Shown piece by piece: positions 4,453 to 62,058 of a DNA stretch of 64,000 nt. Position 1 is the first letter of the stretch. Each line of letters starts with the position of its first letter. The DNA comes from a virus (Duplodnaviria > Heunggongvirae > Uroviricota > Caudoviricetes): the IMG/VR virus record IMGVR_UViG_2675903278_000002, one strand, 5' to 3'. The notes below the pieces were generated by a model that made no database searches, had not been told where the DNA came from, and was given only the letters and a program-made list of their open reading frames with translations. The position numbers and the translations under genes were made by a program.

Positions 4453-4620
4453 TTGTAGGTAGTTATCTATCTGTGTATATTGCGTTGGCGCGTTAAATTT
4501 CTGAAACAACTATTCGTTTTTGGTGGCCTATGGCCACCATTTTTTTATCTGTCTGGTCTTGTTCTCTCAATAAATGTAAACTCACGCAATGAATAAGTGG
4601 TTACTTATCTTTGTGAGGTT

Positions 4621-5727
4621 TTTGTGTCACTCCTTTTGAATCGTGAGCATACGAACGGTCAGGTAACAAACGCATCGTATGCAAAAGTTATTGAGACGGT
4701 GCTTAAAAGCGGCGTGCAGGCTGATGATCGCACAGGCACTGGTACTTTAAGCACCTGCTACGTTCCCTCTTACTACATGCTTACTGGTGGGACTGTGCCG
4801 CTTATTTCTGGAAAGGCGGTAAATCTTAAGCCACTGCTTGTCGAACTTGAGTGGTATCTGAAAGGCACGGGCAACATCCAATTTCTCAAGGATAACGGCG
4901 TTAAGATTTGGGATGCATGGGCCGATGAGAATGGCGATTTGGGGCCGGTTTACGGTAAGCAGTGGCGTCGATGGGAAGATACCCGCATCGTGAGCCATAG
5001 TGAATATCTGAGCAAGATCGCTACTTTCCGTGAACGCGGGTACAAAGTCGAGGGATACCTGGGTATCAGTGAAGATCGCGTAGTGCTGTCCCGTGAAATC
5101 GATCAGCTACAGCGTATTGTCGATACACTGCGCACGAACCCTACCGATCGTCGCATCATGCTTAACGCATGGAACGTAGGCGAGCTTGAGGATATGAAAC
5201 TGCCACCTTGCCACTTTGTCTTCTCTTTGTGGAGTCGTGAGCTGGATTTTGAAACCCGTTTAACGATGGCAACTGACATTGGTCTTCAACACAGTCGCCT
5301 CGGTTATGAGTCTATCTACACCAAGATGCTATACGATCTGGAGATGGACGGCAGTGTTACTGAAACTGAACTGGATGAACTTGGAATCCCCAAACGCATC
5401 CTCAACTCCTGCCTCGTACAGCGTAGCGTAGACACTTTTGTTGGTATGCCATTCAATATTGCTGGCTATGGCATTCTCACTCATTTTCTCGCGAAGATTA
5501 CGGGTCACATGGCCGGTGCATTTGTGCATTTTGGCTTTGACGTGCATTTATACAATAACCACATGGAAAGTGTGTGTGAGCTAATGAAACGACAGGCTCC
5601 AGAGCATTCAGATCCGGTCGTTATTTTCCCTCATGAATGGTCTGAGCTGGATGATTTCAAATGGGACGATATTCTGATTCTTGGCTATGACCCTCTACCG
5701 TGGATCAAGGTTCCAGTGGCGGTGTGA
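4621..5727 (+). CDS. thyA: thymidylate synthase family protein (ThyA-like) with ~100-aa insertion
   Basis: DRTGTGTLS, GDLGPVYGKQWRRWE, catalytic LPPCHF, insertion before it; adjacent DHFR favours a true thymidylate synthase; track ORF starts at GTG 4597, GTG 4621 with GAGG upstream preferred. Confidence 0.85.
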   Translation, partial: FVSLLLNREHTNGQVTNASYAKVIETVLKSGVQADDRTGTGTLSTCYVPSYYMLTGGTVPLISGKAVNLKPLLVELEWYLKGTGNIQFLKDNGVKIWDAWADENGDLGPVYGKQWRRWEDTRIVSHSEYLSKIATFRERGYKVEGYLGISEDRVVLSREIDQLQRIVDTLRTNPTDRRIMLNAWNVGELEDMKLPPCHFVFSLWSRELDFETRLTMATDIGLQHSRLGYESIYTKMLYDLEMDGSVTETELDELGIPKRILNSCLVQRSVDTFVGMPFNIAGYGILTHFLAKITGHMAGAFVHFGFDVHLYNNHMESVCELMKRQAPEHSDPVVIFPHEWSELDDFKWDDILILGYDPLPWIKVPVAV

Positions 5728-5728
5728 T

Positions 5729-6142
5729 ATGGCAAGAGGTATGTATGTCTTATGCGAAATTGAAGGTGTGCTGGCAAATGCCAGCCATCGTAAATCAGTA
5801 TCTGACGCGGATGCAGGCCAGCTCATTGCCGGTGATGAACTCATTTTCCCCACCAGCCGTATGTTGCGTGGTTTTGCTCGCTCAGGGGCTGAAGTGGTGC
5901 TTATCAGTAGCCGCTCTGAAACTCTTGAAGCGCCAACTAAACGATGGCTGAAAGATTTTGGCGTTGATTATGACTGGCTTCATCTCGTACCGAATGGCAC
6001 CAGTTATGAGAAGCATATTAAGCGCACATTAGCGGAGCATAAAGGCGATCTGCTTATCGCTGCGCTGGTGCACGATCCTCGACTCCGTGCCGCTTTAGCC
6101 GACTCTCACCATCGACCGGTCATCTATGAGGTGAGCAAATGA
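5729..6142 (+). CDS. hypothetical protein
   Basis: ATG one codon after thyA stop, in frame with track ORF 5681..6142; overlaps DHFR start by 4 nt (translational coupling). Confidence 0.55.
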   Translation: MARGMYVLCEIEGVLANASHRKSVSDADAGQLIAGDELIFPTSRMLRGFARSGAEVVLISSRSETLEAPTKRWLKDFGVDYDWLHLVPNGTSYEKHIKRTLAEHKGDLLIAALVHDPRLRAALADSHHRPVIYEVSK

Positions 6143-6615
6143 AGATGATCGCTGCTGTTGGCCGTAACTATGAGATCGGCATAGCGAATGAACTCCCCTG
6201 GCGTTGTTCTACCGATCTGAAGCTATTTAAGAGACTCACCAAAAACGCCACTGTCGTTATGGGGCGTAAAACGATGGAAAGTCTCAAACGCCCTCTTCCA
6301 GAGCGTCATAACCTCGTTTTGACGCGCTCTCATGGCTTTGTACCAAATGGATTCTACCCTGCTGGTGTGGATGATGTGTTGCGATTACCAGAGCCTGTGT
6401 GGGTGATTGGCGGGGAACAAATTTACTCGCTATTCATGCCGCATGTTGAAGAGATTTGGCTCTCCCACATCGGCGTTGATGTGCCAAACGCCGATGCATT
6501 CTTCCCGGCAAGCATGATGCGTAATTTAGGCTTTGTGCCTGTTGAAACAGCTTATACCCAACGAGCCAGCGAGGAAGAGCCTGGCTTTTCGCAGATCGTA
6601 TACAGAAGGTCGTAA
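6139..6615 (+). CDS. folA: dihydrofolate reductase
   Basis: 158 aa; MIAAVGRNYEIGIANELPW and VMGRKTMESL are typical type I DHFR; coupled to flanking genes. Confidence 0.92.
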   Translation: MKMIAAVGRNYEIGIANELPWRCSTDLKLFKRLTKNATVVMGRKTMESLKRPLPERHNLVLTRSHGFVPNGFYPAGVDDVLRLPEPVWVIGGEQIYSLFMPHVEEIWLSHIGVDVPNADAFFPASMMRNLGFVPVETAYTQRASEEEPGFSQIVYRRS

Positions 6616-7259
6616 TGGATTACCGGATTGGGATCACTGGTGCTCAGGGCAGTGGGAAAACAACCCTGGCTAAATATATCGACAAACATTACGGAATCCC
6701 TTACGTGGATGCTGGTGTCGGAAGTTTGATGAGCCGCCTCGGTGTTCGAGTAGGTGATTCTATGCCTCTATATGAGCGGCTTCAGATTCAAATGGAAATA
6801 GCAAAGCATATAGAGCTACTTACGCGTGGTGTTGAAGGCTTTGTTATCGATCGCACACCTGCTGATGTTATGGCCTACACGTTGGATTTGGTCGGCCATA
6901 CAAATGAAGATCGGTGTATTGAGTTAGCCCTCGATATCGAAAAGTTTTGCCACAAAACTGCTATTTCAAACTTTAACGCCATTGCTGGCTTACGCCCGGG
7001 AGTCGCTCTCTCAGAGCGAGATTACTTGCGATCACAACGAGCATCATTAGACCGTCTGTATGTCGCTCGTATTGATGCGTTGATGTGCGGGGAACTGACA
7101 AAAATTCACCTGCATCCGCAAAGGGGAGATCTGCAAACCTTCGTCGTTTCCAACCGATATCGCACGGTTGAAGCAAGAGCCAGATCAGTGATGAGAATGC
7201 TAGATAACGCTGTAGAAAAGATAGAAAACCGGTTCTGTGGCCGAGTGACCGTTCATTAG
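6615..7259 (+). CDS. P-loop NTPase, putative (deoxy)nucleoside monophosphate kinase
   Basis: 214 aa; Walker A GITGAQGSGKTT near N-terminus; position next to thyA/folA suggests dNMP kinase. Confidence 0.75.
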   Translation: MDYRIGITGAQGSGKTTLAKYIDKHYGIPYVDAGVGSLMSRLGVRVGDSMPLYERLQIQMEIAKHIELLTRGVEGFVIDRTPADVMAYTLDLVGHTNEDRCIELALDIEKFCHKTAISNFNAIAGLRPGVALSERDYLRSQRASLDRLYVARIDALMCGELTKIHLHPQRGDLQTFVVSNRYRTVEARARSVMRMLDNAVEKIENRFCGRVTVH

Positions 7260-7320
7260 AAATTGTTCGCCTCTTCGACATTGCGACAATAAAACTCTCA
7301 AAATGGGTTAAGGATAAAAA

Positions 7321-7740
7321 ATGTTTAGTGAAATGTTGCTTGAAGATGAACTGGATCGGAAAACAACAGAGGCTTTGATTCGTGTAGCGGACGAACATTC
7401 CCGGTCGCTTATGAGCGATCGAGAGGCTCGTCTGGCTATTCGTGCCATATTCGAAACTGCGCAGGGGCTTGTTGGTACACAAGTGGGTGAAGCCATTAAC
7501 ATCGCCATGTCTCAGTTCAGTGAAGGCAGTAAAAAGCCTCTGTTTCCTATGCATTTGATGCTGGCTGGTGGCTCGGTGCTTTATATCTCTGTTTGTCTGG
7601 ATAGCAACCAAATCAATATTCTCAACACTGTGTCAGGTAAGTGGAAAGATCCGATTGTCTGTGAAACCAGTGAAGAAACTTTGAAAAAAGCGGCTCAATT
7701 TGTACGTAGCGCACTACTTAAGGGCGCTAAGAAGTTGTAA
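7321..7740 (+). CDS. hypothetical protein
   Basis: 139 aa ORF, ATG preceded by A-rich RBS region; no recognisable motif. Confidence 0.65.
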   Translation: MFSEMLLEDELDRKTTEALIRVADEHSRSLMSDREARLAIRAIFETAQGLVGTQVGEAINIAMSQFSEGSKKPLFPMHLMLAGGSVLYISVCLDSNQINILNTVSGKWKDPIVCETSEETLKKAAQFVRSALLKGAKKL

Positions 7741-7749
7741 GGAGTTCTG

Positions 7750-8307
7750 ATGACAACGATTGTTGCAGGCATCGATATCGAGTCTACGGGACTGGATTTC
7801 CTTGCTGGTCATAAAATTATTGAAATCGCAATTACCCGCTATGAACTGGAGACACAGAGACATATTGATAGTCTGGAGATGCGTTTTAACCCTCGCAGAA
7901 ACATAGATCCGAAAGCTCAAGCCGTTCATGGCATTTCATTGGAACAGCTCGCAGCTGAACCTTTGTTGTCAAATCATGCCAGCGAAATTGGCGCTTATAT
8001 GGGGGCATGTAGTGTGTGGGTTGCTCATAACGGCGAAGCATTTGATATACCATTTATTCGACACGAGTTTTCAGGGTATGGAGTAAGACTGCCAGAAGTT
8101 CCTGTTATAGATACTATGTTATCGGGATTGTGGGCCACAGAAGACGGTAAACGTCCCCGCCTTGAAGAGTTGGCCTTCTCTCTTGGCTTTATATACGATC
8201 ATGCCAAAGCACATAGTGCCTTATATGACACAAACTTAATGATGCAATGCTTCTTTAAGGCACGTAATAAGTACGGATTTTTTAAATTACCCTCTGAAAT
8301 TGTGTAA
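7750..8307 (+). CDS. DnaQ-like 3'-5' exonuclease (DEDDh family)
   Basis: 185 aa; Exo I GIDIESTGLD, Exo II VAHNGEAFDIPF, Exo III HSALYDT; RBS AGGAG; hairpin terminator follows. Confidence 0.85.
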   Translation: MTTIVAGIDIESTGLDFLAGHKIIEIAITRYELETQRHIDSLEMRFNPRRNIDPKAQAVHGISLEQLAAEPLLSNHASEIGAYMGACSVWVAHNGEAFDIPFIRHEFSGYGVRLPEVPVIDTMLSGLWATEDGKRPRLEELAFSLGFIYDHAKAHSALYDTNLMMQCFFKARNKYGFFKLPSEIV

Positions 8308-8311
8308 AACA

Positions 8312-8349
8312 AAAGCCTACTTTAAAAAGTTTAAAGTAGGCTTTCTTTT
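8312..8349 (+). terminator. rho-independent terminator
   Basis: 13-bp stem AAAGCCTACTTTA/TAAAGTAGGCTTT, loop, then CTTTT tract directly after exonuclease gene. Confidence 0.75.
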
Positions 8350-8465
8350 AAAGAACAGTCGCCTTTCAATCATTTCCTGCCTGTATTTAATACTTTTCCG
8401 CCTGATAGGTTTAGTCAAAATGTAGCCATCGAAACGCAAATGTAACCAAACAGAAGGAGACTTAC

Positions 8466-9275
8466 ATGAGTTCGGTTGAAAATGTAATGACAAATGATGA
8501 TCTGGACGAGCTGACAGCCATGTTGCAATCACTTGATGAACCAGTAAAAAAAGCTGCACAGGTTGAAAATACTGATGATATTGACGATCTGCTGCTCGGC
8601 CTAGATGCTGGCGTAGCCATGAGTTCTGATGATGTTGCCGAAGAACTGTTCAATGAAGAAAAAGCAGGTGATTTCAGCTCTGCTTTAAATGAGTTGGAGT
8701 TAGCGCATGAGCCTATAAACGTAATTAACGCTGAAAGTGTTGAAGCTGCCGAAAACGAGCCAGAACAATTGGGATTTATTGAGGTTGAAGAGTGTGTTGA
8801 GGTTAATGATGAATTAAAAGTTCAACAGTCAAATGATAGCAATACAAATAAAAAAGCTCGTGCTGCAAGAGGTCCTCGTTTTACTTTAAGTGATAAAGAT
8901 GATTCGTTTTTCAATAAAGCGGGCTTAGAAAAAGATATTTTCTTAGACGCTTACGATAACGCGCCTGTCAAAGCAAAGGATAAGATATTAAACCTTCTTA
9001 ATTGGTTTAGCGGAGGTCCAGATATTAGTGTTTACACGGTAATTTCCATGAGACACCTTCTCACAGAAAAGAAGGCTACAAGTAATAGTATTAAGATTGC
9101 TTTAATGAGCAATCCAGAAAAACCGTATCCGCTTAACACTGCGTCAACTCAGGCTGGGCAAATGATGGCTGTATTTCCAGCGACAGGAATTGCCGTTAGA
9201 GGCGGTGGAAATCTAACATTGAACGAAGAATCACCGATCGTTAAGAAGTTTGTCGCGGAGTACACTATTGGATGA
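8466..9275 (+). CDS. hypothetical protein with strongly acidic N-terminal half
   Basis: 269 aa; RBS AAGGAG; first ~120 aa very rich in D/E; upstream of Dam-like gene. Confidence 0.7.
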   Translation: MSSVENVMTNDDLDELTAMLQSLDEPVKKAAQVENTDDIDDLLLGLDAGVAMSSDDVAEELFNEEKAGDFSSALNELELAHEPINVINAESVEAAENEPEQLGFIEVEECVEVNDELKVQQSNDSNTNKKARAARGPRFTLSDKDDSFFNKAGLEKDIFLDAYDNAPVKAKDKILNLLNWFSGGPDISVYTVISMRHLLTEKKATSNSIKIALMSNPEKPYPLNTASTQAGQMMAVFPATGIAVRGGGNLTLNEESPIVKKFVAEYTIG

Positions 9276-9428
9276 CGTTCCCCTACTGAAAATAAAGCCC
9301 ATAGAGAGCTTTATAGTGCTGGGTAAGCCAATCACATACCCAGCACCACAAAAACGCGCCAGAGAGCTTCTCGTTTGCATTTCTGGCGCGTTTTATTTGA
9401 TTGCCAGACATAAAATCAAATGCAAAAA

Positions 9429-9448
9429 TAGGTATTTACTTACCTATC
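9429..9448. repeat. class-B palindrome (ATAGGTAnnTACTTACCTAT family)
   Basis: ATAGGTATTTACTTACCTAT just upstream of the Dam-like gene; same family at ten other intergenic sites. Confidence 0.6.
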
Positions 9449-9458
9449 GAGAAAGAAG

Positions 9459-10052
9459 ATGATTGCAGCCGAAAAAATCAAACAGCGAAAGCGCGACAAC
9501 TCTCTTCGTGACCTCTGGAGAACACCTGACTGGCTGTTTTCTGCCATTCAACGTTATCTTGGAGTGACATTTGATGTTGACGTTGCCTGCAACAAGGACA
9601 ATGCAAAGCTGCCTAATTTCATAGGCGTTGAGCGTGATGCTTTGAAATCTGAATGGGGACAGCCAGGTACAATTGCCTTCCTCAATCCACCCTACTCCAA
9701 AATCTCCCCCTGGATTGATGCGGCTATACGTGAGCAGGCTCGCGGAGTTACAACAGTGATGCTAATTCCTCAATCCCTAGATACAAAGTGGTATGAGCGT
9801 GCAACAGAGTGTGCGAATGAGACGATTATTCTGTCTGGTGGCCGCGTAGCGTTTGTCGAGCCTGACGTCAATCTGGGTCAGGTAGAAGTAAACATCAACC
9901 CAGGTGGCAGTATGCTCGTTGTTTTTCGAGGATTCTGTCAGGACGCTGGGCACTCTATAAGCAAGATCCCTTTGGACGTCATGAAAAGTCTGGGAGGGTA
10001 TGATCCTGCGAATGTGATCAGGAAAAAAAGACCATCAAAGAAGGCTGCTTAG
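9459..10052 (+). CDS. dam: DNA N6-adenine methyltransferase (phage Dam-like)
   Basis: 197 aa; catalytic NPPYS (AFLNPPYSKISPW); size and motif order fit small phage Dam enzymes. Confidence 0.8.
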   Translation: MIAAEKIKQRKRDNSLRDLWRTPDWLFSAIQRYLGVTFDVDVACNKDNAKLPNFIGVERDALKSEWGQPGTIAFLNPPYSKISPWIDAAIREQARGVTTVMLIPQSLDTKWYERATECANETIILSGGRVAFVEPDVNLGQVEVNINPGGSMLVVFRGFCQDAGHSISKIPLDVMKSLGGYDPANVIRKKRPSKKAA

Positions 10053-10074
10053 TTTGTTCTGGCGTCTGTAATTA

Positions 10075-10131
10075 GCCTGCTTCTGTATATATAAATAACT
10101 ACATATTAATTATTAATATACGGAAGCAGGC
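10075..10131. repeat. long AT-rich hairpin element, copy 1 of 2
   Basis: GCCTGCTTCTG ... CGGAAGCAGGC inverted arms around an AT-rich loop; near-identical element at ~39561-39616. Confidence 0.7.
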
Positions 10132-10213
10132 TGTTTTGTATCAGAGACTCCAGACCTGAACATCACTACAGAATCCACTAGAACCCCTTCCCAGACGCTT
10201 TAAAATCGATTTT

Positions 10214-10468
10214 ATGAATCACTTTAAGGAAACTAACATGTCATACCCGACTAATGTCGTTGCGCTCGTAGAGAGCGATTTTCTGGCCCAGGCCCGTGAA
10301 ATGATGAAAGATCGCGAGCAGGCTTTCAACTTGTACGAATGGGCAATTAAGTGCTTGCATCTTGGGGAGCATCGCGAACTTGTTGAACAGCTTTTAGGTG
10401 AGTTGATTAACGAGGTGTTTGCCTTGAATGTTCAACTACATGGTCGAGAAAATAATCAATCGAAATGA
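10214..10468 (+). CDS. hypothetical protein
   Basis: 84 aa ORF; alternative start at internal ATG ~10238 with AAGGAAAC upstream. Confidence 0.55.
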   Translation: MNHFKETNMSYPTNVVALVESDFLAQAREMMKDREQAFNLYEWAIKCLHLGEHRELVEQLLGELINEVFALNVQLHGRENNQSK

Positions 10469-10469
10469 T

Positions 10470-10998
10470 AGATAAGTACAAACTATTCATAAAGTGAATT
10501 GTAAGTGCTAAGATCTGATAGTTTCCAGTCGTAGACTGGAGACTCGACCTGATGGGTGGGGGTAAGCGTCACTGGCGTCAGGTTTAAAAAAGCTCACTAC
10601 CAGCGTAGAACCGGTGCCGTTTAGGTGTCGGGGAAGGGGGAACCAAAGTGAGCGGAGACAAGGGTCACTTTATGATTGTCGAGTCTGGGGTGTTTCGAGA
10701 GGTTGAATCCAGTACTCCCCTTCATAAAGTGTGGGAAGATCTCGGTTCTGGGGTGCTGTCATCCATAACTTCCCAAGTCTAAGCTGGCAGTAGACTTAGG
10801 CCATAACTTTTCAGGTTATGAAACGACCAGGTTGGTGAGGGATTTTTATACTCACCTCCCTGGGAGAGTATTACCTGAAAAGACAACCTCTCACTTCGTT
10901 CGAGGTGAACTTCACTCACTTCGTTCGTTCAGTTCAGGTTTATAAAAACCTGTTCTGGGAAGTAATTTGTTTATTTTAATAATTATTAACACGCACGC
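10470..10998. other. ~0.5 kb non-coding region with multiple hairpins and short direct repeats
   Basis: No ORF >60 aa; complementary segments (GTAGACTGGAGACTCGAC ... GTCGAGTCTGG), TCACTTCGTTCG x2, GC palindrome CACGCACGCGTGTGCGCACGCGCG at the 3' end; no tRNA cloverleaf found. Confidence 0.4.
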
Positions 10999-11052
10999 GT
11001 GTGCGCACGCGCGAGGAAAAAAATCGGCGCGGCGCTTGATTCAGGAGTTTAT

Positions 11053-11646
11053 ATGACGACGAAGACACCAGCCCGATCGCAAGAAAAAACTCGCAAAAAA
11101 GCCAAAAACAAAAATTCTCCCCGCACCAATTCCACAACGCCTGTCGTAGAGTTCAATCCCCAGCTTAAAACCGTGAAAATCTTCAGTGATGGCTCTTGCC
11201 TTAAAAATCCGGGTGGCCCGGGCGGTTACGGTATAGTTCTCCAGTATCGTGGTGAGGAACGCGAGTTCTCAGATGGTTTTCATAGCACCACCAATAACCG
11301 CATGGAGATGATGGGGGCACTTATCGGGCTGGAGCGTTTGAAATATCCATGCAACGTTATTTTGCACTCTGATAGCCAGTATCTGAAAAACGGCATGACA
11401 CAGTGGATGAAATGGTGGAAACGCAATGGATGGGTGACTTCTGACAAAAAACCGGTAAAGAATGTTGATCTGTGGAAGCGTCTGGATGAGGCTGCAAGTC
11501 GACATAATGTTCGCTGGAAGTGGGTTAAAGGTCACGCCGGGCATCGTGAAAATGAAATATGTGATCGACTCGCGAAGATCGCAGCTTTTTCCGCAGCAGA
11601 TATGCCTCACAAGAAAGATATTGGTTTTGTTTACAACAAGCAGTAA
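11053..11646 (+). CDS. rnhA: ribonuclease HI
   Basis: [51 protein letters not shown] match RNase HI catalytic regions; basic N-terminal extension; in frame with track ORF 10999. Confidence 0.9.
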
Positions 11647-11791
11647 GTAAGTGTTTACCTATCATTTTAAATCATGTATCTTATCAGCGTCAGGATGACA
11701 ATGTGTCGGTAAGACACAGTTCCAGGATGGAACGAGAAAGGCGGCTGGCAATCGCCAGCCGCAACTCTTTCTGACACTGGATGGAGTCCAC

Positions 11792-12286
11792 ATGGCACGT
11801 CAAACCTATTTCACTTCTGCAACTAAACGTCCTCGTTCACTACGTCAAATTTTGGCCGAATTATTTAGCGGTCGTGTTCTGTCACGTCTTGATGAACTAG
11901 AGACTGCCGTTCGGTTGCTGAATGAACGTTTAGATAAGCAAGCGTCAGTTGTTGCGAACGTGGGGGCGATTGTTACCTCTGGTTCTTCACGCGAAGCGAA
12001 AAGTACACGGCCTTTAGTGAAGGAGAAAAACAACAAGGACAGTTCGAATGGAAAATTTTCAAAGAAAGAGGCTGAAACCAATGGCCTACGTTCTCATTAT
12101 AGTTTCACTGGCGACGATAGCCGTTCCAGCCGGCCAGAGCCTTTTGATGCCGGGTTCATCCATCACCACACCTCCGTCGACGACAATTACCACCACTCCA
12201 GTAGAGCGTCCTGTCACTCTGGATGGGATGACGGTGGATGCGATACCTCAAGTTCATCCAGTTACTCAGGATCATGCTGTGACTAA
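11792..12286 (+). CDS. hypothetical protein (Ser/Asp-rich C-terminus)
   Basis: 164 aa ORF; no recognisable domain. Confidence 0.6.
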   Translation: MARQTYFTSATKRPRSLRQILAELFSGRVLSRLDELETAVRLLNERLDKQASVVANVGAIVTSGSSREAKSTRPLVKEKNNKDSSNGKFSKKEAETNGLRSHYSFTGDDSRSSRPEPFDAGFIHHHTSVDDNYHHSSRASCHSGWDDGGCDTSSSSSYSGSCCD

Positions 12287-12295
12287 GGCGGTTGT

Positions 12296-12484
12296 ATGAA
12301 CTGGTTTTCAAATCACTTTGGAAAAATTTGGCTGGCAATTCTTGCCCTCATGGCCGCCGGTTGGGTATCGAACATTATAAAACTTGTTTGCTCTGGCGAT
12401 CTCCAGTTTCAGGCTGGTATGACCTTGGCTCGTGTTGTTGGGATTTTTGTTTTTCCAGTTGGTTCGGTACTTGGTTATTTCTGA
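12296..12484 (+). CDS. small hydrophobic protein, putative membrane protein
   Basis: 62 aa; two hydrophobic stretches (LAILALMAAGWV, VVGIFVFPVGSVLGYF). Confidence 0.45.
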   Translation: MNWFSNHFGKIWLAILALMAAGWVSNIIKLVCSGDLQFQAGMTLARVVGIFVFPVGSVLGYF

Positions 12485-12538
12485 CGGCTGTTAGTGCATA
12501 TGCATTGACCATCTCTGCGTAAGCAATTTATGTAATTA

Positions 12539-12554
12539 GAAAACAACTTGTTTT
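12539..12554 (+). promoter_or_regulatory. class-A palindromic promoter/operator-like motif (GAAAACAAnnTGTTT)
   Basis: GAAAACAACTTGTTTT ~25 nt upstream of RBS GGAAAACACATG of the TerB-like gene; recurs before many small genes. Confidence 0.6.
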
Positions 12555-12577
12555 GACAAATAATAAAAGGAAAACAC

Positions 12578-13003
12578 ATGTTAGGTTTCTTCAAAAAGAA
12601 AACTCGTAAAGCTGTTATCGAAGTCAAAAAAATGGAGAACCGTGATGCGGTTGAGGCCACCGTGTGGGGCGCGTACATGATCTCCTATGCCGACGGCACA
12701 TGTGACGCAAAAGAAATTGCCATTCTTGAGAAGACAATTGCAGCTCTGCCTGCGTTTTCTCCGTTTGCTGGTGAAATTGCCCAAATGAGCGCCAATATCC
12801 GTGCTCGTTACGAAGCGTCCCCTCGTTCTGCTAATGCACAGGCTATTCGTGAGCTGTCTGATATTGCGGGTACTCCAGAGGCGGTCGATGTTCTGTGTCT
12901 GTGCCTTGATATTGCCGACCAAGACGGTATTGGCGAACAAGAAGAGCTGGCCCTGAAAAAGATCGCACAGGCGCTTCAGTTGTCACTGGATGCTTATCTC
13001 TAA
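12578..13003 (+). CDS. TerB-like (tellurite-resistance TerB domain) protein
   Basis: 141 aa; two helical halves each with acidic DG...EE pattern (ISYADGTCDAKEIAILE; DIADQDGIGEQEELALKKIA) resembling TerB; motif-level only. Confidence 0.6.
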   Translation: MLGFFKKKTRKAVIEVKKMENRDAVEATVWGAYMISYADGTCDAKEIAILEKTIAALPAFSPFAGEIAQMSANIRARYEASPRSANAQAIRELSDIAGTPEAVDVLCLCLDIADQDGIGEQEELALKKIAQALQLSLDAYL

Positions 13004-13161
13004 TGCTTGAGAGATTCCGGCTTGTGACCGTCATTGCTCTTCTGGTGATGGCGGTGTTGGTGGATTTTACGGGAAAGATGATGTCTGTCATTTCTGATGG
13101 CGTCCTCATTGGTCTGGCGATCTACTTCGCTTATCCGCTAGTCCGTAAAGCAACGTGTTAA
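13003..13161 (+). CDS. small hydrophobic protein (52 aa)
   Basis: ATG overlaps stop of the TerB-like gene (TAATG); predicted product MLERFRLVTVIALLVMAVLV..., below track cutoff; terminator follows. Confidence 0.4.
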   Translation: MLERFRLVTVIALLVMAVLVDFTGKMMSVISDGVLIGLAIYFAYPLVRKATC

Positions 13162-13163
13162 TG

Positions 13164-13191
13164 ACAAGGGCCAAATGGCCCTTGTGTTTCG
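13164..13191 (+). terminator. rho-independent terminator
   Basis: ACAAGGGCC-AAAT-GGCCCTTGT hairpin followed by GTTTCG. Confidence 0.65.
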
Positions 13192-13267
13192 TTGACCGAA
13201 ATAGAGAGTTTGCACCTTTACGTTTAGCTTGCTCCCCTTTTATGCCACATCACAATAAAGCCAATAA

Positions 13268-13283
13268 GAAAACAACTTGTTTA
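13268..13283 (+). promoter_or_regulatory. class-A palindromic motif
   Basis: GAAAACAACTTGTTTA, then RBS GGAAAAACACATG of gene at 13301. Confidence 0.6.
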
Positions 13284-13300
13284 AGCATTAGGAAAAACAC

Positions 13301-14207: not shown

Positions 14208-14209
14208 TT

Positions 14210-16613: not shown

Positions 16614-16633
16614 TAGGTAAATACTTACCTAAT
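16613..16633. repeat. class-B palindrome
   Basis: ATAGGTAAATACTTACCTAAT, near-perfect palindrome directly after the methyltransferase stop. Confidence 0.6.
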
Positions 16634-28797: not shown

Positions 28798-28860
28798 TAT
28801 TGTAAGTACATACTTATGATCATAGAATATAAAAATAACCAAAACACTACGGAGAGTGAA

Positions 28861-34439: not shown

Positions 34440-34718
34440 TTATTTTAATCTGCTTAATAGCGTTTCGAGATCTTCCTTTGTCATATTAGAGTTCTCATAG
34501 ATACGCATGATTTTCTCACGAGTCTTAGCGGAAGCCCCGACAGAAGATATAACCTTGTCAAAGTCGGCCATTGTCAATTGTTCCAGAATGGTATTTATGA
34601 CTTCAGCCTTAGACATTTTGATATTTTTTTCTTTTAGTTTCACTTGAAACTTTCCAAGTTTGTCATTGGCCTTATCAGACAATGCTACCTGACAGTAAGT
34701 TGTTTTCTTTTCACTCAT
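34440..34718 (-). CDS. hypothetical protein
   Basis: 92 aa ORF immediately downstream of the helicase gene on the minus strand. Confidence 0.55.
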   Translation of the reverse strand: MSEKKTTYCQVALSDKANDKLGKFQVKLKEKNIKMSKAEVINTILEQLTMADFDKVISSVGASAKTREKIMRIYENSNMTKEDLETLLSRLK

Positions 34719-36322: not shown

Positions 36323-36347
36323 ATAATAAGTAAGTGATTACTTAGTG
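36323..36347. repeat. class-B palindrome in divergent intergenic region
   Basis: TAATAAGTAAGTGATTACTTAGTGG between helicase (-) and ParB-like (+) starts; overlaps a TATAAT hexamer. Confidence 0.55.
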
Positions 36348-39269: not shown

Positions 39270-39536
39270 ATGACGTTAACCGACAAACAAAAGGACATCA
39301 TCAAAACGCTCAATCTCGGTTATGAGCGAGGTCATCTACTTGACCTGGACGAATTGCTTGAAGTTTTGCCGTACAAGACAACCAAGCAAAGTATCCAGTT
39401 CTCAATTCGCGCTCTGATAAAAAAGGGGCTGGTGGAGAAAGGGCATACGCGCCAACGCAGTGACAATCGCTATCACCGCCGGACTCTTGGGTTAACCACT
39501 TTAGGTCGAGCCAAAGCGAAGTTACTGGTGATGTAA
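39270..39536 (+). CDS. small basic protein, possible DNA-binding
   Basis: 88 aa; lysine/arginine-rich with helix-turn-helix-like segment; immediately upstream of packaging genes. Confidence 0.6.
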   Translation: MTLTDKQKDIIKTLNLGYERGHLLDLDELLEVLPYKTTKQSIQFSIRALIKKGLVEKGHTRQRSDNRYHRRTLGLTTLGRAKAKLLVM

Positions 39537-40364: not shown

Positions 40365-41620
40365 TGGCAATCCCGTCCTCGCTCAGTCTTGTGCAACTGC
40401 ATTCTGGACAGATGAAAGTCTTCCAGTCTCCGCATCGATTTAAAGTTGTTTGTGCTGGTCGACGCTGGGGAAAATCCCGGTTGTCGATCTCCACTATTAT
40501 TCGTGCGGCGGCAAAGGAAAAAAAGCAAAGAGTCTGGTATGTCGCTCCTACTTACCAGATGGCTCGCCAGATTTTGTGGGACGATCTACAGGAAGTTCTG
40601 CCTCGTAAGTGGGTTAGGAAAAAGAACGACACCACGATGACAATCGTGTTGAAGAACGGTTCGGAGATCGCCCTCAAAGGTGCTGATAAGCCTGACACTC
40701 TGCGCGGCGTAGCGTTGCATTTTGTAGTGCTTGATGAATTTCAGGATATGAAGGCTGACACCTGGTACAAGGTGTTACGACCTACTCTTTCATCGACACG
40801 CGGCGGTGCACTGATCATTGGTACGCCAAAAGGCTTCTCGGAATTTCACAAACTGTGGACTATAGGCCAGAACGTAGAGCTGCAAACAAAGGGACAGTGG
40901 AAGAGCTGGCAGTTTGTAACTGCCGATTCTCCGTTTGTACCTACGGCGGAAATTGAAGCTGCTAAGAACGATATGGACCCGAAATCGTTCGCTCAGGAGT
41001 ACCTGGCGAGCTTTGAGAACATGTCCGGGCGCGTTTACTACCCGTTCGATCGTAACGTGCATGTAAAACCGCTTCAGTTCAACCCTCGGTTGCCTATATG
41101 GGTAGGGCAGGACTTCAACATTGACCCGATGTCTTCAGTAATTTTGCAACCTCAGCCAAATGGTGAGCTATGGGCAATTGATGAATTGGTGCTCTTTTCC
41201 TCTAACACGGCAGAGGTTTGTGATGAGCTTGAGAGACGCTTCTGGCGCTGGAAATCACAGATAACGGTATTTCCAGATCCGGCAGGTGCTTATCGCCAAC
41301 ATGCTCGCGGGGAGTCTGACGTCGACATATTCAAAGAGAAGGGATTCTTACGTGTCGATTATTCGAAAAAGCACCCGCCAATTGCGGATCGTGTTAATGC
41401 TGTTAACCGAATGCTGATGACCGCATCTGGAGATATCCGGCTGTATATCGATCCGAAGTGCAAGCATTTGATTGATTCACTGGAAAAAGTCATCTACAAG
41501 CCTGGAACACGAGATATGGATAAGACAGGTGGCATTGAGCATAGTGCAGACGCATTGGGCTATCCAGTACATCGTAGGTATCCAGTCAAAAACCGTGTTA
41601 TTCTTGGTGGTTCTCGATAG
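40364..41620 (+). CDS. terminase large subunit
   Basis: 418 aa; Walker A VVCAGRRWGKS, Walker B VVLDEFQD, C-terminal nuclease-like acidic motifs (GQDFNIDP, FPDPAG). Confidence 0.85.
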   Translation: MAIPSSLSLVQLHSGQMKVFQSPHRFKVVCAGRRWGKSRLSISTIIRAAAKEKKQRVWYVAPTYQMARQILWDDLQEVLPRKWVRKKNDTTMTIVLKNGSEIALKGADKPDTLRGVALHFVVLDEFQDMKADTWYKVLRPTLSSTRGGALIIGTPKGFSEFHKLWTIGQNVELQTKGQWKSWQFVTADSPFVPTAEIEAAKNDMDPKSFAQEYLASFENMSGRVYYPFDRNVHVKPLQFNPRLPIWVGQDFNIDPMSSVILQPQPNGELWAIDELVLFSSNTAEVCDELERRFWRWKSQITVFPDPAGAYRQHARGESDVDIFKEKGFLRVDYSKKHPPIADRVNAVNRMLMTASGDIRLYIDPKCKHLIDSLEKVIYKPGTRDMDKTGGIEHSADALGYPVHRRYPVKNRVILGGSR

Positions 41621-41635
41621 GTAAGTAATTATCTA
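41618..41635. repeat. class-B palindrome
   Basis: TAGGTAAGTAATTATCTA overlapping the terminase stop, before portal gene. Confidence 0.55.
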
Positions 41636-41646: not shown

Positions 41647-43221
41647 ATGGAATTGAACGACAAACAAATTAAGGATCTGGTGGCGCGACGCCACCCGGAA
41701 TACGAAAAGAAAAAAGAACATTGGGACTTCCTCGCCAGCACTTACGCTGGCGGGCGTGGTTGGTTTACAGACAATATCTTTCGTTACTTTAAAGAGGGAG
41801 ATCAGGAGTTTAAGGAGCGAGTTGAACGTGCTTATCGCTTCAACCACACTCGTGAGGTGGTAAACCTCATCAACAAATATCTCTTTAAAGAAGACATTCA
41901 TAGAAATATCGAAGAGGCACCAGAGCAGATCCGCAATTTCTGGAAACGTGCGACTCGCCAGAATGCCTCTATTGACTCATTTATGGCCGCTATTGATTTG
42001 CAGTCGTCTATTTACGGTCGCATATGGGTTGTTGTCGATAGCACGATGAGTGGTGATGTTGAGTCAGTAGCTGACGAGAAAAAGAAAGATGCTCGCGCCT
42101 ACGCCTACTGGATTTCACCTCAGCAAATGCTGGATGTGGCATGGGACGACGACGGGAATATGTTGTGGGCGTTAATTGTGGAAGTCGCTCGTGATGACGC
42201 AGATCCTTTTACTTCTACAGGTCAGGAATACCAACGTTATCGTCTGTGGACACAAAACGAGTGGTATCTGTTCCGTGAGGAAGTGAAGAAGGGCGCTGGT
42301 GGAGCAGGTCGCCGTCAGGCAAAAGTTATTTTAGAGGATAGCGGTGAGCATAATCTCGGCGTAGTTCCTGTGTTTCCTGTTGATTGTATTGGAGAAAGTG
42401 AATCACCGTATTTCAGCCCATCGTTGATCGATGATATCGCTTATCTTGATCGTGCGGTTGCAAACTATCTGTCAAACCTTGATGCCATTATTCAGGATCA
42501 GACATTTAGCCAGTTGGCTATACCGGTACAGTCGCTTTTACCTGGTGATGAAAACCACACTAAAGTGCTTGAAATGGGCACAAAGCGAGTATTCACCTAC
42601 GATTCTGAAGGTGGAAACCAGCCGTTTTATCTGTCACCAGACCCGAAACAAGCTCAGATGATCATCACTACGATTAAGACGGTGATTAACGAAATCTACC
42701 ATTCAGTTGGTGTAGCTGGTGAGCGAACGAAGCAGGACAACGCACAGGGAATCGATAATTCATCTGGTGCCGCAAAAATGTATGACTTCCAGCGTGTAAA
42801 TAGCTTGCTTGTCACAAAAGCAGAGCGTCTGGAAAGGGCTGAACGCCAAATCATGCTACTGGTTGCGAAATGGATGGGGGTAGATCTGGACGAAGACCAC
42901 TCTTTAATTGCGTATCCAGAAAGTTTCGATATTCGTGGCCTTACTGATGAATTTTCTGTTGCCGAGAAACTGTCATTACTTCAGGCACCGGACTCTGTAC
43001 GTCGTCACCAGATGGAAATGCTTATTGAGAAGATTTTCCCGAACATTACTGAGGCGATGAAAAAGGAATTTGATAAAGATCTCTTGAATTTTCCTCCAAA
43101 AAATGATCTAAATACCCTTGAAAATAAGTCAGTACTTACTTATGATCGTGGTGCAGCCCAAGAAAGCGGGCAAGATCAACCCCGAGGGAATGGGGACTCA
43201 TCTACTCAAGAGAACGAGTGA
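41647..43221 (+). CDS. portal protein (putative)
   Basis: 524 aa; assignment by size and position between terminase and scaffold/capsid. Confidence 0.7.
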   Translation: MELNDKQIKDLVARRHPEYEKKKEHWDFLASTYAGGRGWFTDNIFRYFKEGDQEFKERVERAYRFNHTREVVNLINKYLFKEDIHRNIEEAPEQIRNFWKRATRQNASIDSFMAAIDLQSSIYGRIWVVVDSTMSGDVESVADEKKKDARAYAYWISPQQMLDVAWDDDGNMLWALIVEVARDDADPFTSTGQEYQRYRLWTQNEWYLFREEVKKGAGGAGRRQAKVILEDSGEHNLGVVPVFPVDCIGESESPYFSPSLIDDIAYLDRAVANYLSNLDAIIQDQTFSQLAIPVQSLLPGDENHTKVLEMGTKRVFTYDSEGGNQPFYLSPDPKQAQMIITTIKTVINEIYHSVGVAGERTKQDNAQGIDNSSGAAKMYDFQRVNSLLVTKAERLERAERQIMLLVAKWMGVDLDEDHSLIAYPESFDIRGLTDEFSVAEKLSLLQAPDSVRRHQMEMLIEKIFPNITEAMKKEFDKDLLNFPPKNDLNTLENKSVLTYDRGAAQESGQDQPRGNGDSSTQENE

Positions 43222-45039: not shown

Positions 45040-45059
45040 GTAGATAAGTAGTTATCTAT
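45040..45059. repeat. class-B palindrome
   Basis: GTAGATAAGTAGTTATCTAT after capsid gene. Confidence 0.55.
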
Positions 45060-45062: not shown

Positions 45063-45092
45063 AAAGGGTGGGCTATACGCCCACCCTTTTTG
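45063..45092 (+). terminator. rho-independent terminator
   Basis: AAAGGGTGGGC-TATAC-GCCCACCCTTTTT after capsid gene. Confidence 0.8.
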
Positions 45093-48225: not shown

Positions 48226-48226
48226 T

Positions 48227-48610: not shown

Positions 48611-48616
48611 CTCAAT

Positions 48617-48638
48617 TGGTAAGTATATACTTACTATT
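48617..48638. repeat. class-B palindrome
   Basis: TTGGTAAGTATATACTTACTAT before major tail protein gene. Confidence 0.55.
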
Positions 48639-55111: not shown

Positions 55112-55117
55112 GTATCT

Positions 55118-55140
55118 GGATAAGTAAGTACTAATTTACT
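55118..55140. repeat. class-B palindrome
   Basis: GGATAAGTAAGTACTAATTTACT after gpM-like gene. Confidence 0.5.
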
Positions 55141-55193
55141 ATCATTGTGGCGCTGACAGGATGTTAGCGCCTACTTATTTCAAGGATGAAACA

Positions 55194-60200: not shown

Positions 60201-62008
60201 CAAGAGATGAAGCGGCGGCTCTTATTGCTAAGGAAAGCGAGGCTCGTGTTGAAGGCGATGCTGCAAACGCTAAACAACTGGAAGTGTTGCAGTCAACGGT
60301 AGAGGAAAGCTCCGCTGCCGTTGAAGAAATGAAAAAGACGGTTGCAGAGGTCGATCGTGCCAGTGCAGAACTGACTACGAACATTGAGGCGTTAGCCAAA
60401 ACAAATATTGACCTGGCTCTTCGTCAAGATGAAGACCAGCACAAGCAGATGGTCAATAACGCGAAGATCGCAACAACACAGAAAACCTTTGCTGATGATA
60501 TGTCTGCAATGGCCACGAAGGTTGAGGAAATTCGCGTAGAAATTGGCGAAGACATTAAGGCCAGTATTCTGGAAGAGTCCACCGCTCGTGCCGATGGCGA
60601 TGAAGCGTTGGCAAAGCGTGTCACTCAGCTGCAATCTAAGTTTGAAGGAGATATCAGCGCGGCGATTAGTACAGAGCAGGAGGCTCGTACATCTGCCGAT
60701 GAAGCTCTGACGACACAGATCACTCAGCTTGAGTCGAAAGTAAGCAACGATATCGTCGCAGCTATTAAGGAAGAGCAAGAAGCCCGAGCAACGGAAGATT
60801 CGGCTCTGGCAAGCCAGATCACCCAACTTCAGGCAAAGGTTGATGATGATATTTCTGCTGCAATACGTAGTGAGCAGGAGGCCCGAGCAAGCGGGGACTC
60901 TGCGTTAGCCAAACAAATAAACCAGCTTCAGTCAAAGGTTGACGGTGATATATCCGCTGCCATCACTCAGGAGCAGGAGGCCAGAGCAAGTGCTGACCAG
61001 GCGCTCTCACGAGAAATTAACAGCCTGCGAGCACAAACCGGAACTGATATTGCCGCAGCGGTTGCTGTAGAGACAAAAGCAAGGACTGATGCCGATAGTG
61101 CATTGTCTACCCAGATTACGTCTCTTACAGCAAAAGCTAATGATCTCGAGGCGTCTCTTGCCAGAGAAACAACGGCTCGTGCAGATGGTGATACCGCTTT
61201 AACAAAAGAGGTTTCAAGTTTAAAAGCACAGACAGCGAAAGATATTAGTGCGGCCGTTGCAGTTGAAACGCAGGCTCGAACTGATGCTGACTCGGCGTTG
61301 TCGTCTCAGATCACCAAGCTGACCTCTCAATACAAAGAGGATATTAAAGCGGCTGTAGCAACCGAAACGAAAACGCGTACAGAGCAAGATGCTGCATTGG
61401 CGACTCAAATCACAAACTTAGAGTCTCAAACGGCAGCCAACATTTCCGCGGCGGTAACAACTGAAACGACAGCGAGAACGCAGGCAGATAATGCTCTGAG
61501 TGGGCGAATCGATACTCTGAAAGCAGAGGTGGATGGAAATACCGCGACAATTCAACAGCAGGCAACAGCTATTGCTGATACCAACAAAAAAGTATCAACC
61601 GCGTGGACGTTGAAAATGGAGACTTCAACGAGCGGAGGGCAGAAGTATGTTGCCGGTATTGCGCTTGGTATTGACACCACTGGGCTATCTCAGTTTTTGG
61701 TTCAGGCGGACAGGTTTGGTTTGGTCAACTCTGTTAACGGGAAGATCACAACGCCATTTGTTATCGAAAACAGTATCGCCTATATGAATGGAGCGTATAT
61801 CAAGGATGGCACAATCACCAATGCAAAAGTAGGCGATCTGCAATCTACCAATTTTGTTAGCGGTAGATCTGGATGGCGGTTCGGCAAAAATGGAACGCTT
61901 GAGATCAACGGTAATAGCGGCGGCAATGGGCGATTGGTTATAAATGGTCAGCGGATTGACGTTTATGACGATAACAACGTCCTACGAGTAAGAATTGGCC
62001 GTCTGTGA
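57281..62008 (+). CDS. central tail fibre / host specificity protein (lambda gpJ-like) with internal tandem-repeat array
   Basis: ~1575 aa; YPNSVLVGLKVNSEQFG, AFGCTSRGQAHRVGLWLLYT, GQKYVAGIALGI, GRLVINGQRIDVYDD follow lambda J order; ~0.55 kb-equivalent run of ~33-aa helical repeats inserted before the C-terminal domain. Confidence 0.9.
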   Translation: MEQFKKKKLPLFIAGAGGKKSSKSSSRTPVEADDTVNSRAMAAILDLLGEGVIGGLVNGARSIFIDDLPIVNEDGSSNFSGITWDFRDGSQDQTPMSGFDFVETPKSVNIQLKKTHYVTVSIDNDEADRVRVIMKFPSLRSIDKKTGDTNGTTVEYKFQIANGDSTFVDVVAEGEKSVGIKLTAKKTGVYYRSYELKLPKPGRAYKVRVVRITDDNSSQYLYNDTWVDSIGEIVDTPMNYPNSVLVGLKVNSEQFGSTMPSRSYLVRGLKIRVPSNYNESSNTYAGVWDGTFKLLSSSNPAWILFDLLTNARYGLGQYVSESMIDLGQLYQIGRYCDEEVDDGFGGKEKRFAINTQITSRQDAYRLIQDIAGAFRGMVFWAGGMVNIMQDSPSDPVMMFTNSNVKDGLFTYKGSARKDRPSVALVTYNNKEDGYKQNIEYVEDQDAMRRYGERKTEVVAFGCTSRGQAHRVGLWLLYTARMESDVITFTAGLDASFLMPGETVLIQNKYRAGKRNSGRIVAFTKNSVTLDAPVSLAKGGCFIRILNQEGKIVERDVLETGENITKVTFSKALSSAETPVLNGVWTITEPDLEPMRVRIVNIAQGETPGSFDITAVENNPSKYEAIDNGATLIPQNTTVLDPTYSKPSNLQITEGTYLSSPGNLSVKLTATWEGKSPEYWISWRRSDENNVSNWQSARVTEEQYEIVNVAENGRYDFQLYAVSFNGKKTEIISAVYQVLGTMTPPDSPTSLTAVGDYRNVILNWVNPDSVDLDHINVYASQTNNLDTAKLIAESASTTFTHAGLGDSETWYYWVRASNKRGMLSPPNSNLGTEATTRDVLSFLTGKITSSELGQALLEDINSKASQEAVDELNEHINQSVESLEGAVNDVKEDIAELDQQFSDNLADFEIKFNERSDALENAQTELKGEVSATIDKVNEAFEKIDATDAAIVEIENTVSEHDKALANTVEAIKAARDEAAALIAKESEARVEGDAANAKQLEVLQSTVEESSAAVEEMKKTVAEVDRASAELTTNIEALAKTNIDLALRQDEDQHKQMVNNAKIATTQKTFADDMSAMATKVEEIRVEIGEDIKASILEESTARADGDEALAKRVTQLQSKFEGDISAAISTEQEARTSADEALTTQITQLESKVSNDIVAAIKEEQEARATEDSALASQITQLQAKVDDDISAAIRSEQEARASGDSALAKQINQLQSKVDGDISAAITQEQEARASADQALSREINSLRAQTGTDIAAAVAVETKARTDADSALSTQITSLTAKANDLEASLARETTARADGDTALTKEVSSLKAQTAKDISAAVAVETQARTDADSALSSQITKLTSQYKEDIKAAVATETKTRTEQDAALATQITNLESQTAANISAAVTTETTARTQADNALSGRIDTLKAEVDGNTATIQQQATAIADTNKKVSTAWTLKMETSTSGGQKYVAGIALGIDTTGLSQFLVQADRFGLVNSVNGKITTPFVIENSIAYMNGAYIKDGTITNAKVGDLQSTNFVSGRSGWRFGKNGTLEINGNSGGNGRLVINGQRIDVYDDNNVLRVRIGRL
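60500..61600 (+). repeat. in-frame tandem repeat array (~99-nt period) inside the J-like gene
   Basis: At least ten consecutive units of pattern DIxAAIxxEQEARxxADxALxxQITQLxSKV; boundaries approximate. Confidence 0.75.
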
Positions 62009-62037
62009 TGGTGGAAAAAAAATTTTATATCGGTAAA

Positions 62038-62058
62038 AATAGGTAAGTATTTACTTAA
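62038..62058. repeat. class-B palindrome
   Basis: ATAGGTAAGTATTTACTTAAT between J-like gene and tail fibre gene; GGCGGG...CCCGCC hairpin follows. Confidence 0.55.

Follow-up and report, generated by a model that had tools for sequence, protein, structure and literature searches.

Do the AT-rich palindromes that recur at module boundaries of the virus record IMGVR_UViG_2675903278_000002 form one regulatory system, and what kind of factor would read them? The stretch analysed here comprises 64,000 nucleotides of this record (the window). A first-pass annotation had listed eleven copies of one such palindrome, termed class B, and had suggested middle/late promoters, anti-termination or processing sites. 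We found that the class-B sites are real, and they are probably sites of a regulator that controls lytic transcription units, if activator and repressor versions of this explanation are taken together. Judged by sequence similarity, the window is an SSU5-like phage-plasmid. Such elements (pLF82/Cyrano, pHCM2, pECOH89 and many Klebsiella and E. coli elements) are frequent in clinical Enterobacteriaceae and bear resistance genes. A 10-kb probe (window 40000-50000) matched Escherichia phage Cyrano, known as phage-plasmid pLF82 in E. coli LF82, at 99.4% identity; the identity to Salmonella phage SSU5 was 82%, and that to Klebsiella SSU5-like phage-plasmids was 78%. Window positions 693-18132 and 34465-39598 align with Cyrano from 68.7 kb through its end, and Cyrano 1-24.4 kb is the counterpart of window 39599-64000. 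Gene names were taken from the records of Cyrano, SSU5 and the Klebsiella phage pJN2-26. Mosaic replacements relative to Cyrano were seen at 18132-20829, 25055-27912 and 31917-34465, none of which holds a class-B site; elsewhere the identity was 98-99%. No tRNAs were found in the window.

The consensus first typed for class B, ATAGGTAAGTAnnTACTTACCTAT (24 nt, arranged as 10+2+10), gave no match in the window at up to three mismatches, and the consensus was therefore redefined. All eleven listed coordinates turned out to lie 0-5 nt from a real, related element. The class-B consensus is an uninterrupted 18-bp palindrome, TAGGTAAGTACTTACCTA, with the halves TAGGTAAGT and ACTTACCTA; with the flanking A/T it measures 20 bp, and the symmetry often reaches further into the flanks (ATGA-core-TCAT), which gives a 26-bp palindrome. 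The 10+2+10 spacing fits the site at 48616 alone (GTAAGTA-TA-TACTTAC), and in the typed form extra central bases had effectively been added. With the 18-bp motif, 4, 7, 10 and 11 matches were obtained in the window at up to 2, 3, 4 and 5 mismatches, respectively, compared with 0, 0, 0.13 and 1.08 in 100 dinucleotide shuffles. A weight matrix (PWM) was then trained on SSU5 and pJN2-26 sites only and run on the window, where 13 positions scored at least 16 bits versus 0.02 expected. Nine of the eleven listed sites reached 20-29 bits, whereas 4590 scored lower and 4452 was weak (Table 1). Three sites absent from the earlier list were added (43125, 10469 and 28799), and in total class B occupies about 14 places in the window, which corresponds to about 20-25 in a whole genome.

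The described location, intergenic and directly after a stop codon, was borne out. Coding sequence makes up about 91% of the window, yet 11 of the 12 strong sites are non-coding (binomial p ~1e-10), and about eight lie within 10 nt of the upstream stop codon or overlap it. Motif positions 1-3 even double as the stop codon of the terminase gene (TAG) and the RNase H gene (TAA). Likewise, class B proved to be distinct from the class-A palindrome, as had been claimed. Class A is AAACAAnTTGTTT and stands before small open reading frames (ORFs) at 12.5-13.3, 24.7-30.5 and 39.65 kb, whereas class B forms a separate class at larger functional blocks: thyX, dam, the parB/terminase operon, portal, scaffold/capsid, decoration, major tail, tail tip and tail fibre.

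The sites are conserved at orthologous junctions. Scans of whole genomes at up to 4 mismatches gave 18 sites in Cyrano, 22 in SSU5 and 23 in pJN2-26, and two of the pJN2-26 copies, before dam and after the capsid gene, are perfect. Among 80 IMG/VR loci compared in the capsid gene region (protein identity 82-100%), the same positions were filled in nearly every locus covering the junction, i.e. 5′ of parB, at terminase/portal, at the portal 3′ end, 3′ of the capsid gene and 5′ of the major tail gene. An alignment anchored on the capsid terminator, not on the motif, showed that every variant has a palindrome in the same place, with diverged flanks. The motif is also restricted to this lineage: the exact 18-mer was present in 31 stretches among 2.9 million IMG/VR contigs, most of them already identified as SSU5-like, and the seven other contigs were found to be SSU5-like too when checked by blastn. 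In each of three diverged clades, all orthologous sites share a clade-specific form of the motif: TAGGTrGTnnnCTACCTA, TAAGTAnnnnnATACCTA and TATGTAAATnnATACATA. The change of motif in these clades is thus concerted and genome-wide, as would be expected if it co-evolved with a trans factor encoded by the element; differences in host factors may also underlie the clade variants. The variants suggest a possible way for related phage-plasmids to avoid regulatory cross-talk.

We asked whether the palindromes are read as DNA or act as hairpins in the transcript. An AU-rich RNA hairpin with a 7-bp stem and a 4-nt loop might serve in processing or stability, in anti-termination, or as the target of a translational repressor such as a FljA-family protein acting near ribosome sites. 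The sites directly follow stop codons and precede start codons by 2-60 nt, a position that would suit such a hairpin. The sites at 45041, 55121 and 62040 precede GC-rich hairpins or terminators by 3-10 nt, the arms of the post-capsid site stay complementary across relatives through G-C, G·T and A-T forms, and positions 33423-33938 encode a member of the FljA family (PF03614) that also has weak Sm/Hfq-like matches. FljA has an RNA-binding role. When right arms were shuffled among the sites within each of the three genomes, the real arm pairs were no more complementary than shuffled ones, in the core as well as in the 8-nt flanks and with or without G·U pairs (p = 0.12-0.99); within-site covariation was thus absent in the three genomes. 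At motif positions 3/16, A·C mismatches were as common as those of the G·U type (29 A·C vs 15 G·T), and at positions 4/15 the order was reversed, hence the consistent G·U/A·C strand bias expected of a sense-strand RNA was not seen. Across about 20 sites per genome it is the sequence rather than the pairing that is conserved, and the clade-wide concerted change suits a protein that reads sequence. An Rfam scan of the window returned no family match, and the stem is weak (-4.7 kcal/mol as DNA). Nor do the sites look like intrinsic terminators, since they are AT-rich and lack a T-run; the true terminators are separate adjacent hairpins. Arm shuffling, the mismatch table and the Rfam scan together led us to reject an RNA hairpin as the main explanation, and we regard it as very unlikely; the anti-termination and processing parts of the earlier suggestion were not supported. 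The half-sites match a shared consensus independently of each other, a pattern characteristic of duplex DNA that is read by a symmetric dimer. From these sequence patterns, the class-B sites point to a dimeric phage-encoded DNA-binding protein and not to an RNA hairpin.

Promoter-like hexamers were found next to the palindromes, and their geometry is heterogeneous. A -10-like hexamer occupies motif positions 17-22 at 33 of 62 sites (background 0.7%). No -35-like hexamer was detected at any one consistent offset, TTGAAA being present at only a few sites. The -35/-10 offset scans were symmetric or scattered, and start points therefore could not be placed from the sequence. Six of 24 σ70-like matches overlap class-B sites (p ~3e-6). 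The class-B sequence coincides with the -35 element, spacer, -10 element or start point of a σ70-like promoter at 43125, 48616 (TTGAAT-18-TATACT at 48602-48631), 55121 (TGGATA-17-TATCAT at 55117-55145), 9429 (TTGCCA-17-AAAAAT at 9401-9429) and 36327, and no recognisable full σ70 promoter was found at most other class-B sites. A promoter is required at the parB site (36327), since the gene on its upstream side points the other way. As a separate observation, σ70-like matches were depleted compared with shuffled sequence (14 vs 31.6 in 1-20 kb, 10 vs 21.6 in 36-56 kb), which suggests selection against spurious host promoters in lytic gene blocks.

Published per-gene RNA-seq data of Cyrano in LF82 cells that were not lytically induced (PMC9928086, Table S1) allowed a comparison with expression. 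In LB, genes just 3′ of class-B sites were at background level. Between LB and macrophages at 6 h, the median of class-B-downstream genes rose by 2.56 log2, compared with 1.89 log2 for other silent plus-strand genes (one-sided Mann-Whitney U test, p=0.018). Together with the flanking hexamers, this result kept a role of the middle/late promoter type among the best readings of the earlier three-way suggestion. Three of the six largest up-steps between adjacent plus-strand genes were at class-B junctions, namely those into CYRAN_12 (major tail protein), CYRAN_56 and CYRAN_60, and the step into CYRAN_12 at the 48616 site amounted to +2.5 log2 (MB6). In the MB6 data expression climbed from the portal gene over CYRAN_4 (scaffold-like) to the capsid gene and then dropped by 3 log2 past the capsid terminator, a course that fits a unit starting at 43125. 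Increases of 4-6 log2 in macrophages at 6 h were recorded for CYRAN_12-13 and 4-5 (window ~43.2-45.0 and 48.7-49.8 kb) and, outside the window, for CYRAN_46, 56-57 and 60-62. No virion production was reported in macrophages (PMC9928086). In macrophages some class-B-headed units are thus selectively, and only in part, released from silence. As to the expected link with transcript boundaries, these data revealed a modest association with expression steps.

Brought together in a mechanism, class-B sites would be the duplex-DNA sites of one phage-encoded, sequence-specific, dimeric transcription factor. They would head about 20-25 lytic units per genome, covering nucleotide/DNA metabolism, terminase/portal, scaffold and capsid, decoration, tail, tail fibre and lysis, and would thus define a phage-wide regulon distinct from that of the class-A early promoter/operators. 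In this model the palindrome would stand in for the -35 element at most sites. The last TA of the motif would open a TAnnnT hexamer, and the centre of the palindrome would lie about 19.5 bp 5′ of the start point that this hexamer implies. The bound factor would switch otherwise silent promoters on after induction, like the -22 box and Lpa in phage P1. This activator-type mechanism resembling P1 late promoters is slightly favoured over repressor operators, and we put it forward tentatively. Several findings weigh against it. A -10-like hexamer is equally frequent at the mirror position on the opposite strand (32 of 62 sites) and may therefore be part of the 26-bp palindrome instead of a -10 element. 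About six sites per genome (dam, portal, thyX, CYRAN_31) lie 11-14 nt from a start codon and are separated from it by a visible Shine-Dalgarno sequence; a start point 7 nt past the hexamer at positions 17-22 would lose the ribosome site there. At the parB and dam sites a conserved -10 element lies upstream and ends at motif position 1, which puts the palindrome over the start point, a repressor-type position. A transcript begun at the post-capsid site of pJN2-26 would meet a complete terminator at once. In the RNA-seq data the enrichment among the top steps was weak (hypergeometric p=0.09), step-downs were present at other class-B junctions (dam, nrdA, sbcD, tail L), and, as the data come from cells without lytic induction, the link to transcript boundaries is no more than modest. 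No Lpa homolog (PF25716) emerged by tblastn (best E=1) or when the Lpa family hidden Markov model was run against all ORFs of the window, Cyrano, SSU5 and pJN2-26 (best E=0.2), and for the class-B binding protein there are candidates only.

In a rival explanation, class-B sites would be operators of a phage-encoded repressor that silences lytic units in the plasmid-prophage state, with the palindrome lying over the spacer, the -10 element or the start point of σ70 promoters. Symmetric sites of 18-26 bp are typical of operators, as is a variable position relative to promoter elements. Palindromes occupy the 17-nt spacers of near-consensus promoters, TTGAAA-17-TATGAT at 43118 and TTGAAA-17-TATCAT before CYRAN_56 (SSU5 55696), and cover the start point 3′ of the conserved -10 element at parB and dam. 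Such near-consensus promoters were at the detection floor in LB-grown lysogens (2.32 for CYRAN_56 and CYRAN_60), and their silence in lysogens suggests active repression. A variant site lies near the lysogen-expressed CYRAN_45, and CYRAN_117, with its ribbon-helix-helix-like pattern, offers a second candidate repressor. Yet most sites have no recognisable -35 element or complete σ70 promoter, SSU5 keeps 22 sites without CYRAN_45, and class A (GATAAT hexamer followed by a palindrome) already resembles a repressor-controlled set. On balance repressor operators are possible but doubtful. A function apart from promoters, either loading of a KorB/ParB-type protein for silencing or partition or a recombination 'linker' at module boundaries, is in our view highly unlikely. 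Continuous palindromes are scattered in intergenic DNA like the 12 KorB operators of RK2, sites stand at module boundaries, and two proteins with a ParB_N domain are encoded directly 3′ of the 36327 site; but in both of them Pfam recognised the N-terminal domain only and no DNA-binding helix-turn-helix (HTH), and the plasmid ParA partition locus is elsewhere (Cyrano 29.3 kb). The linker idea was dropped, as the breakpoints between the window and Cyrano do not coincide with the sites: every mosaic breakpoint is more than about 800 nt away from the nearest class-B palindrome.

The activator reading draws on the likeness to phage P1. In the P1 record (NC_005856), late promoters consist of AAGTnACTT, 4 nt and TAnnnT, have no -35 element and stand before each late operon, and lpa lies directly 5′ of pacA. 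Like these, class B contains AAGT/ACTT at the core of a short inverted repeat, which lies just 5′ of a putative -10 hexamer, lacks a consistent -35 element, and occurs in many dispersed copies before late operons of a large enterobacterial phage-plasmid; the candidate factor gene at 39270-39536 is directly 5′ of the small terminase gene, as is lpa. Unlike the 9-bp P1 -22 box, class B extends over 18-26 bp and its core, AAGTACTT, is without the central base; it resembles the P1 AAGTnACTT box but is not identical to it. The gap to the hexamer is 3 nt instead of 4 nt, the flanking hexamer of class B is symmetric, and class B also stands before DNA-metabolism genes. Pfam and PHROG scans of 9 regulator candidates gave no Lpa match, and a search of 5.8 billion proteins for Lpa returned 42 matches of 67-100% identity, all with PF25716, the named ones all in P1-type context. 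Class B is thus similar to P1 late promoters in design and not a member of them.

Other systems share single features with class B. Dispersed repressor operators, such as those of P1 C1 or of P22 Arc in the spacer of Pant, also have one site in many copies, some of them in spacers or over start points. P1 C1 operators are asymmetric, and Arc-type operators are palindromes of about 21 bp. Unlike the P1 C1 operators, which are annotated as 17-bp and 'monovalent', class B is a true palindrome, and unlike in these systems, most class-B copies have no recognisable full promoter and the cognate repressor is represented by candidates only. The KorB operators (OB) of the IncP plasmid RK2 are 12 perfect intergenic palindromes at variable distance from promoters that are bound by an element-encoded ParB-family protein. 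Around a dozen intergenic palindromes at variable promoter distance are found here as well, whereas the sequence is unrelated, the ParB-like proteins have no detected HTH, and the element is a phage-plasmid rather than a conjugative plasmid. T4 middle promoters, a temporal class, combine a MotA box at -30 with a -10 element and no -35 element; the box is asymmetric and needs MotA and AsiA. As in T4, a phage-specific box would take the place of the -35 element before a normal -10, but class B is palindromic, and nothing related to MotA or AsiA was seen among the annotated regulator candidates scanned.

Candidates for the reader of the sites are included in Table 1. The 39270-39536 protein was modelled by AlphaFold2 with a confidence score (pLDDT) of 82 and is confidently predicted to be a minimal MarR-like winged helix; its Foldseek matches were MarR/MepR-type winged HTH proteins, and its family is confined to SSU5-like elements. 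CYRAN_117, the ortholog of the 34440-34718 protein, was highly expressed in the LF82 lysogen; the structure model of this protein (pLDDT 55) was unusable and the ribbon-helix-helix fold was not confirmed. CYRAN_45 is a lysogen-expressed HTH repressor gene outside the window, and the variant site GGTAAGTrCTTACC lies about 30 nt 5′ of it in Cyrano and pJN2-26; as the binder of class B it was weakened by SSU5, which has 22 sites and no CYRAN_45. Co-variation with the clade motif variants did not discriminate between the candidates, since all of them diverge in step with their neighbours, and in the MarR-like protein the putative recognition helix hardly varies, even between elements with different motifs. 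The FljA-family protein is encoded on the minus strand (Pfam E 1e-80), shows an apparent internal duplication and is 75-78% identical in Cyrano, SSU5 and pJN2-26; it would be an odd regulator for a phage-plasmid.

In a more far-reaching and rather unlikely version, SSU5-type elements would drive their whole middle/late programme from '-22-box-like' promoters that converged on the P1 Lpa design and are read by an unrelated, lineage-restricted small regulator, with factor and box co-evolving clade by clade; the 88-aa MarR-like winged-helix protein is one candidate reader in that case. If true, co-resident phage-plasmids would use mutually insulated regulatory dialects. One recognisable box before nearly every lytic unit predicts transcription units and provides bait for a master regulator and reporter-ready promoters. 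No description of the motif string or of SSU5-type regulation, lysis-lysogeny or temporal control was found in the searchable literature, and a 2026 preprint on heteroresistance deals with another phage-plasmid family. The class-B motif is apparently undescribed, while a regulatory layout of this kind is already known. The concept of a regulon of dispersed palindromes is established (P1, RK2, T4), and the finding is therefore useful rather than surprising.

Table 1. Class-B sites, a neighbouring terminator and candidate trans factors in the window
Feature	Position	Strand	Sequence	PWM score (bits)	Context
Class-B site, weak	4452..4469	.	ATTGTAGGTAGTTATCTA	12.2	Overlaps TAA stop of MazG-like gene; weakest of the listed sites
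Class-B site	4590..4607	.	TGAATAAGTGGTTACTTA	18.6	Listed earlier as 4593
Class-B site	9429..9446	.	TAGGTATTTACTTACCTA	28.3	ATG of dam-like methyltransferase gene 12 nt on
Class-B site, weaker	10469..10486	.	TAGATAAGTACAAACTAT	15.8	TGA stop directly 5′
Class-B site	11644..11661	.	TAAGTAAGTGTTTACCTA	26.8	First TAA is RNase H gene stop
Class-B site	16614..16631	.	TAGGTAAATACTTACCTA	29.2	Adjoins TGA stop of DUF4942 gene
Class-B site, weaker	28799..28816	.	ATTGTAAGTACATACTTA	15.7	Orthologs SSU5 93166, pJN2-26 28032
Class-B site	36327..36344	.	TAAGTAAGTGATTACTTA	20.1	Divergent uvsW / parB-terminase intergenic region
Class-B site	41618..41635	.	TAGGTAAGTAATTATCTA	22.0	TAG is large-terminase stop; portal ATG 11 nt on
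Class-B site	43125..43142	.	TAAGTCAGTACTTACTTA	27.1	In 3′ end of portal gene
Class-B site	45041..45058	.	TAGATAAGTAGTTATCTA	20.3	Capsid stop 9 nt 5′, intrinsic terminator 6 nt 3′
Class-B site	48616..48633	.	TTGGTAAGTATATACTTA	23.6	5 nt past Tc1 stop, ~50 nt 5′ of major tail protein gene
Class-B site	55121..55138	.	TAAGTAAGTACTAATTTA	24.4	Between tail genes M and L
Class-B site	62040..62057	.	TAGGTAAGTATTTACTTA	28.9	Between tail protein J and tail fibre genes
Intrinsic terminator	45064..45090	+	AAAGGGTGGGC-TATAC-GCCCACCCTTT, T-run		3′ of the 45041 site
Candidate trans factor	39270..39536	+			88-aa MarR-like winged-helix protein; directly 5′ of small terminase gene
Candidate trans factor	34440..34718	-			92-aa protein, ribbon-helix-helix-like sequence pattern; ortholog CYRAN_117

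At the level of individual sites, the one at 4590 lies 3′ of a terminator-like hairpin (4521-4539) and 15 nt 5′ of the thyX ATG (4623, Cyrano annotation), with orthologs at Cyrano 72596, SSU5 72512 and pJN2-26 9790. The -10 element ending at motif position 1 is of the extended type (TGcAAAAAT) at 9429, whose pJN2-26 ortholog at 14622 is a perfect palindrome. At 36327 this hexamer is TATAAT, and a -10-like hexamer was present at the same place in every relative examined (TATAAT, TATAGT, AATAGT, TTTAAT, TATACT, TATATT). The 11644 site has orthologs at SSU5 79905 and pJN2-26 16843, which are flanked by AAAATGA...TCATTTT. The 16614 site (orthologs SSU5 84179 and pJN2-26 20936) is followed by a conserved TGTAAGAAT, which opens a weak second palindrome at 16639, 25 bp from the first. 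This extended -10-like element (16637-16645; also Cyrano ~34755 and SSU5 ~38203) is conserved 5-8 nt 3′ of some class-B sites. The 28799 site is directly 3′ of a strong terminator-like hairpin (-17.4 kcal/mol) with a T-run. The 43125 site exactly fills the spacer of the TTGAAA-17-TATGAT promoter (43118-43146), the best σ70-like match in 36-56 kb, and lies about 100 nt 5′ of the scaffold-like gene and the capsid gene. A GC-rich hairpin follows the 62040 site, which has orthologs at Cyrano 22449 and SSU5 21938.

Further repeats were observed in the window. Copies of the class-A element are located at 2313-2352, 12535-12574, 13256-13303, 24678-24743, 26329-26354, 27524-27571, 27901-27926, 28398-28411, 30038-30063, 30523-30548 and 39654-39692. 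Several of them stand a few bases 3′ of a -10-like hexamer (e.g. GATAAT) and before small ORFs, an arrangement reminiscent of early promoters that carry an operator close to their start point. Two copies lie just 5′ of the small terminase gene. A 57-bp near-perfect hairpin, CCTGCwTCTGTATATAT...ATATACGGAAGCAGG, with an AT-rich centre and a folding z of about -7.5, is present in two copies that are 81% alike (10076-10132 and 39561-39617). The second copy lies between the MarR-like and terminase genes, at the start/end point of the Cyrano record, and the hairpin may be a terminator, a pac-region element or an origin-like element. Arrays of three tandem repeats of about 30 nt (AACCAACCTCTT...CAGGCTACCG), iteron-like in appearance, occupy 26399-26495 and 30394-30487 in the small-ORF region. 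Finally, the 26-nt repeat GCAGCGAAAnCATCnGAAACGAACGC occurs four times inside the tail fibre gene (62699-63186) at spacings that are multiples of 42 nt, and probably encodes a repeated peptide motif.

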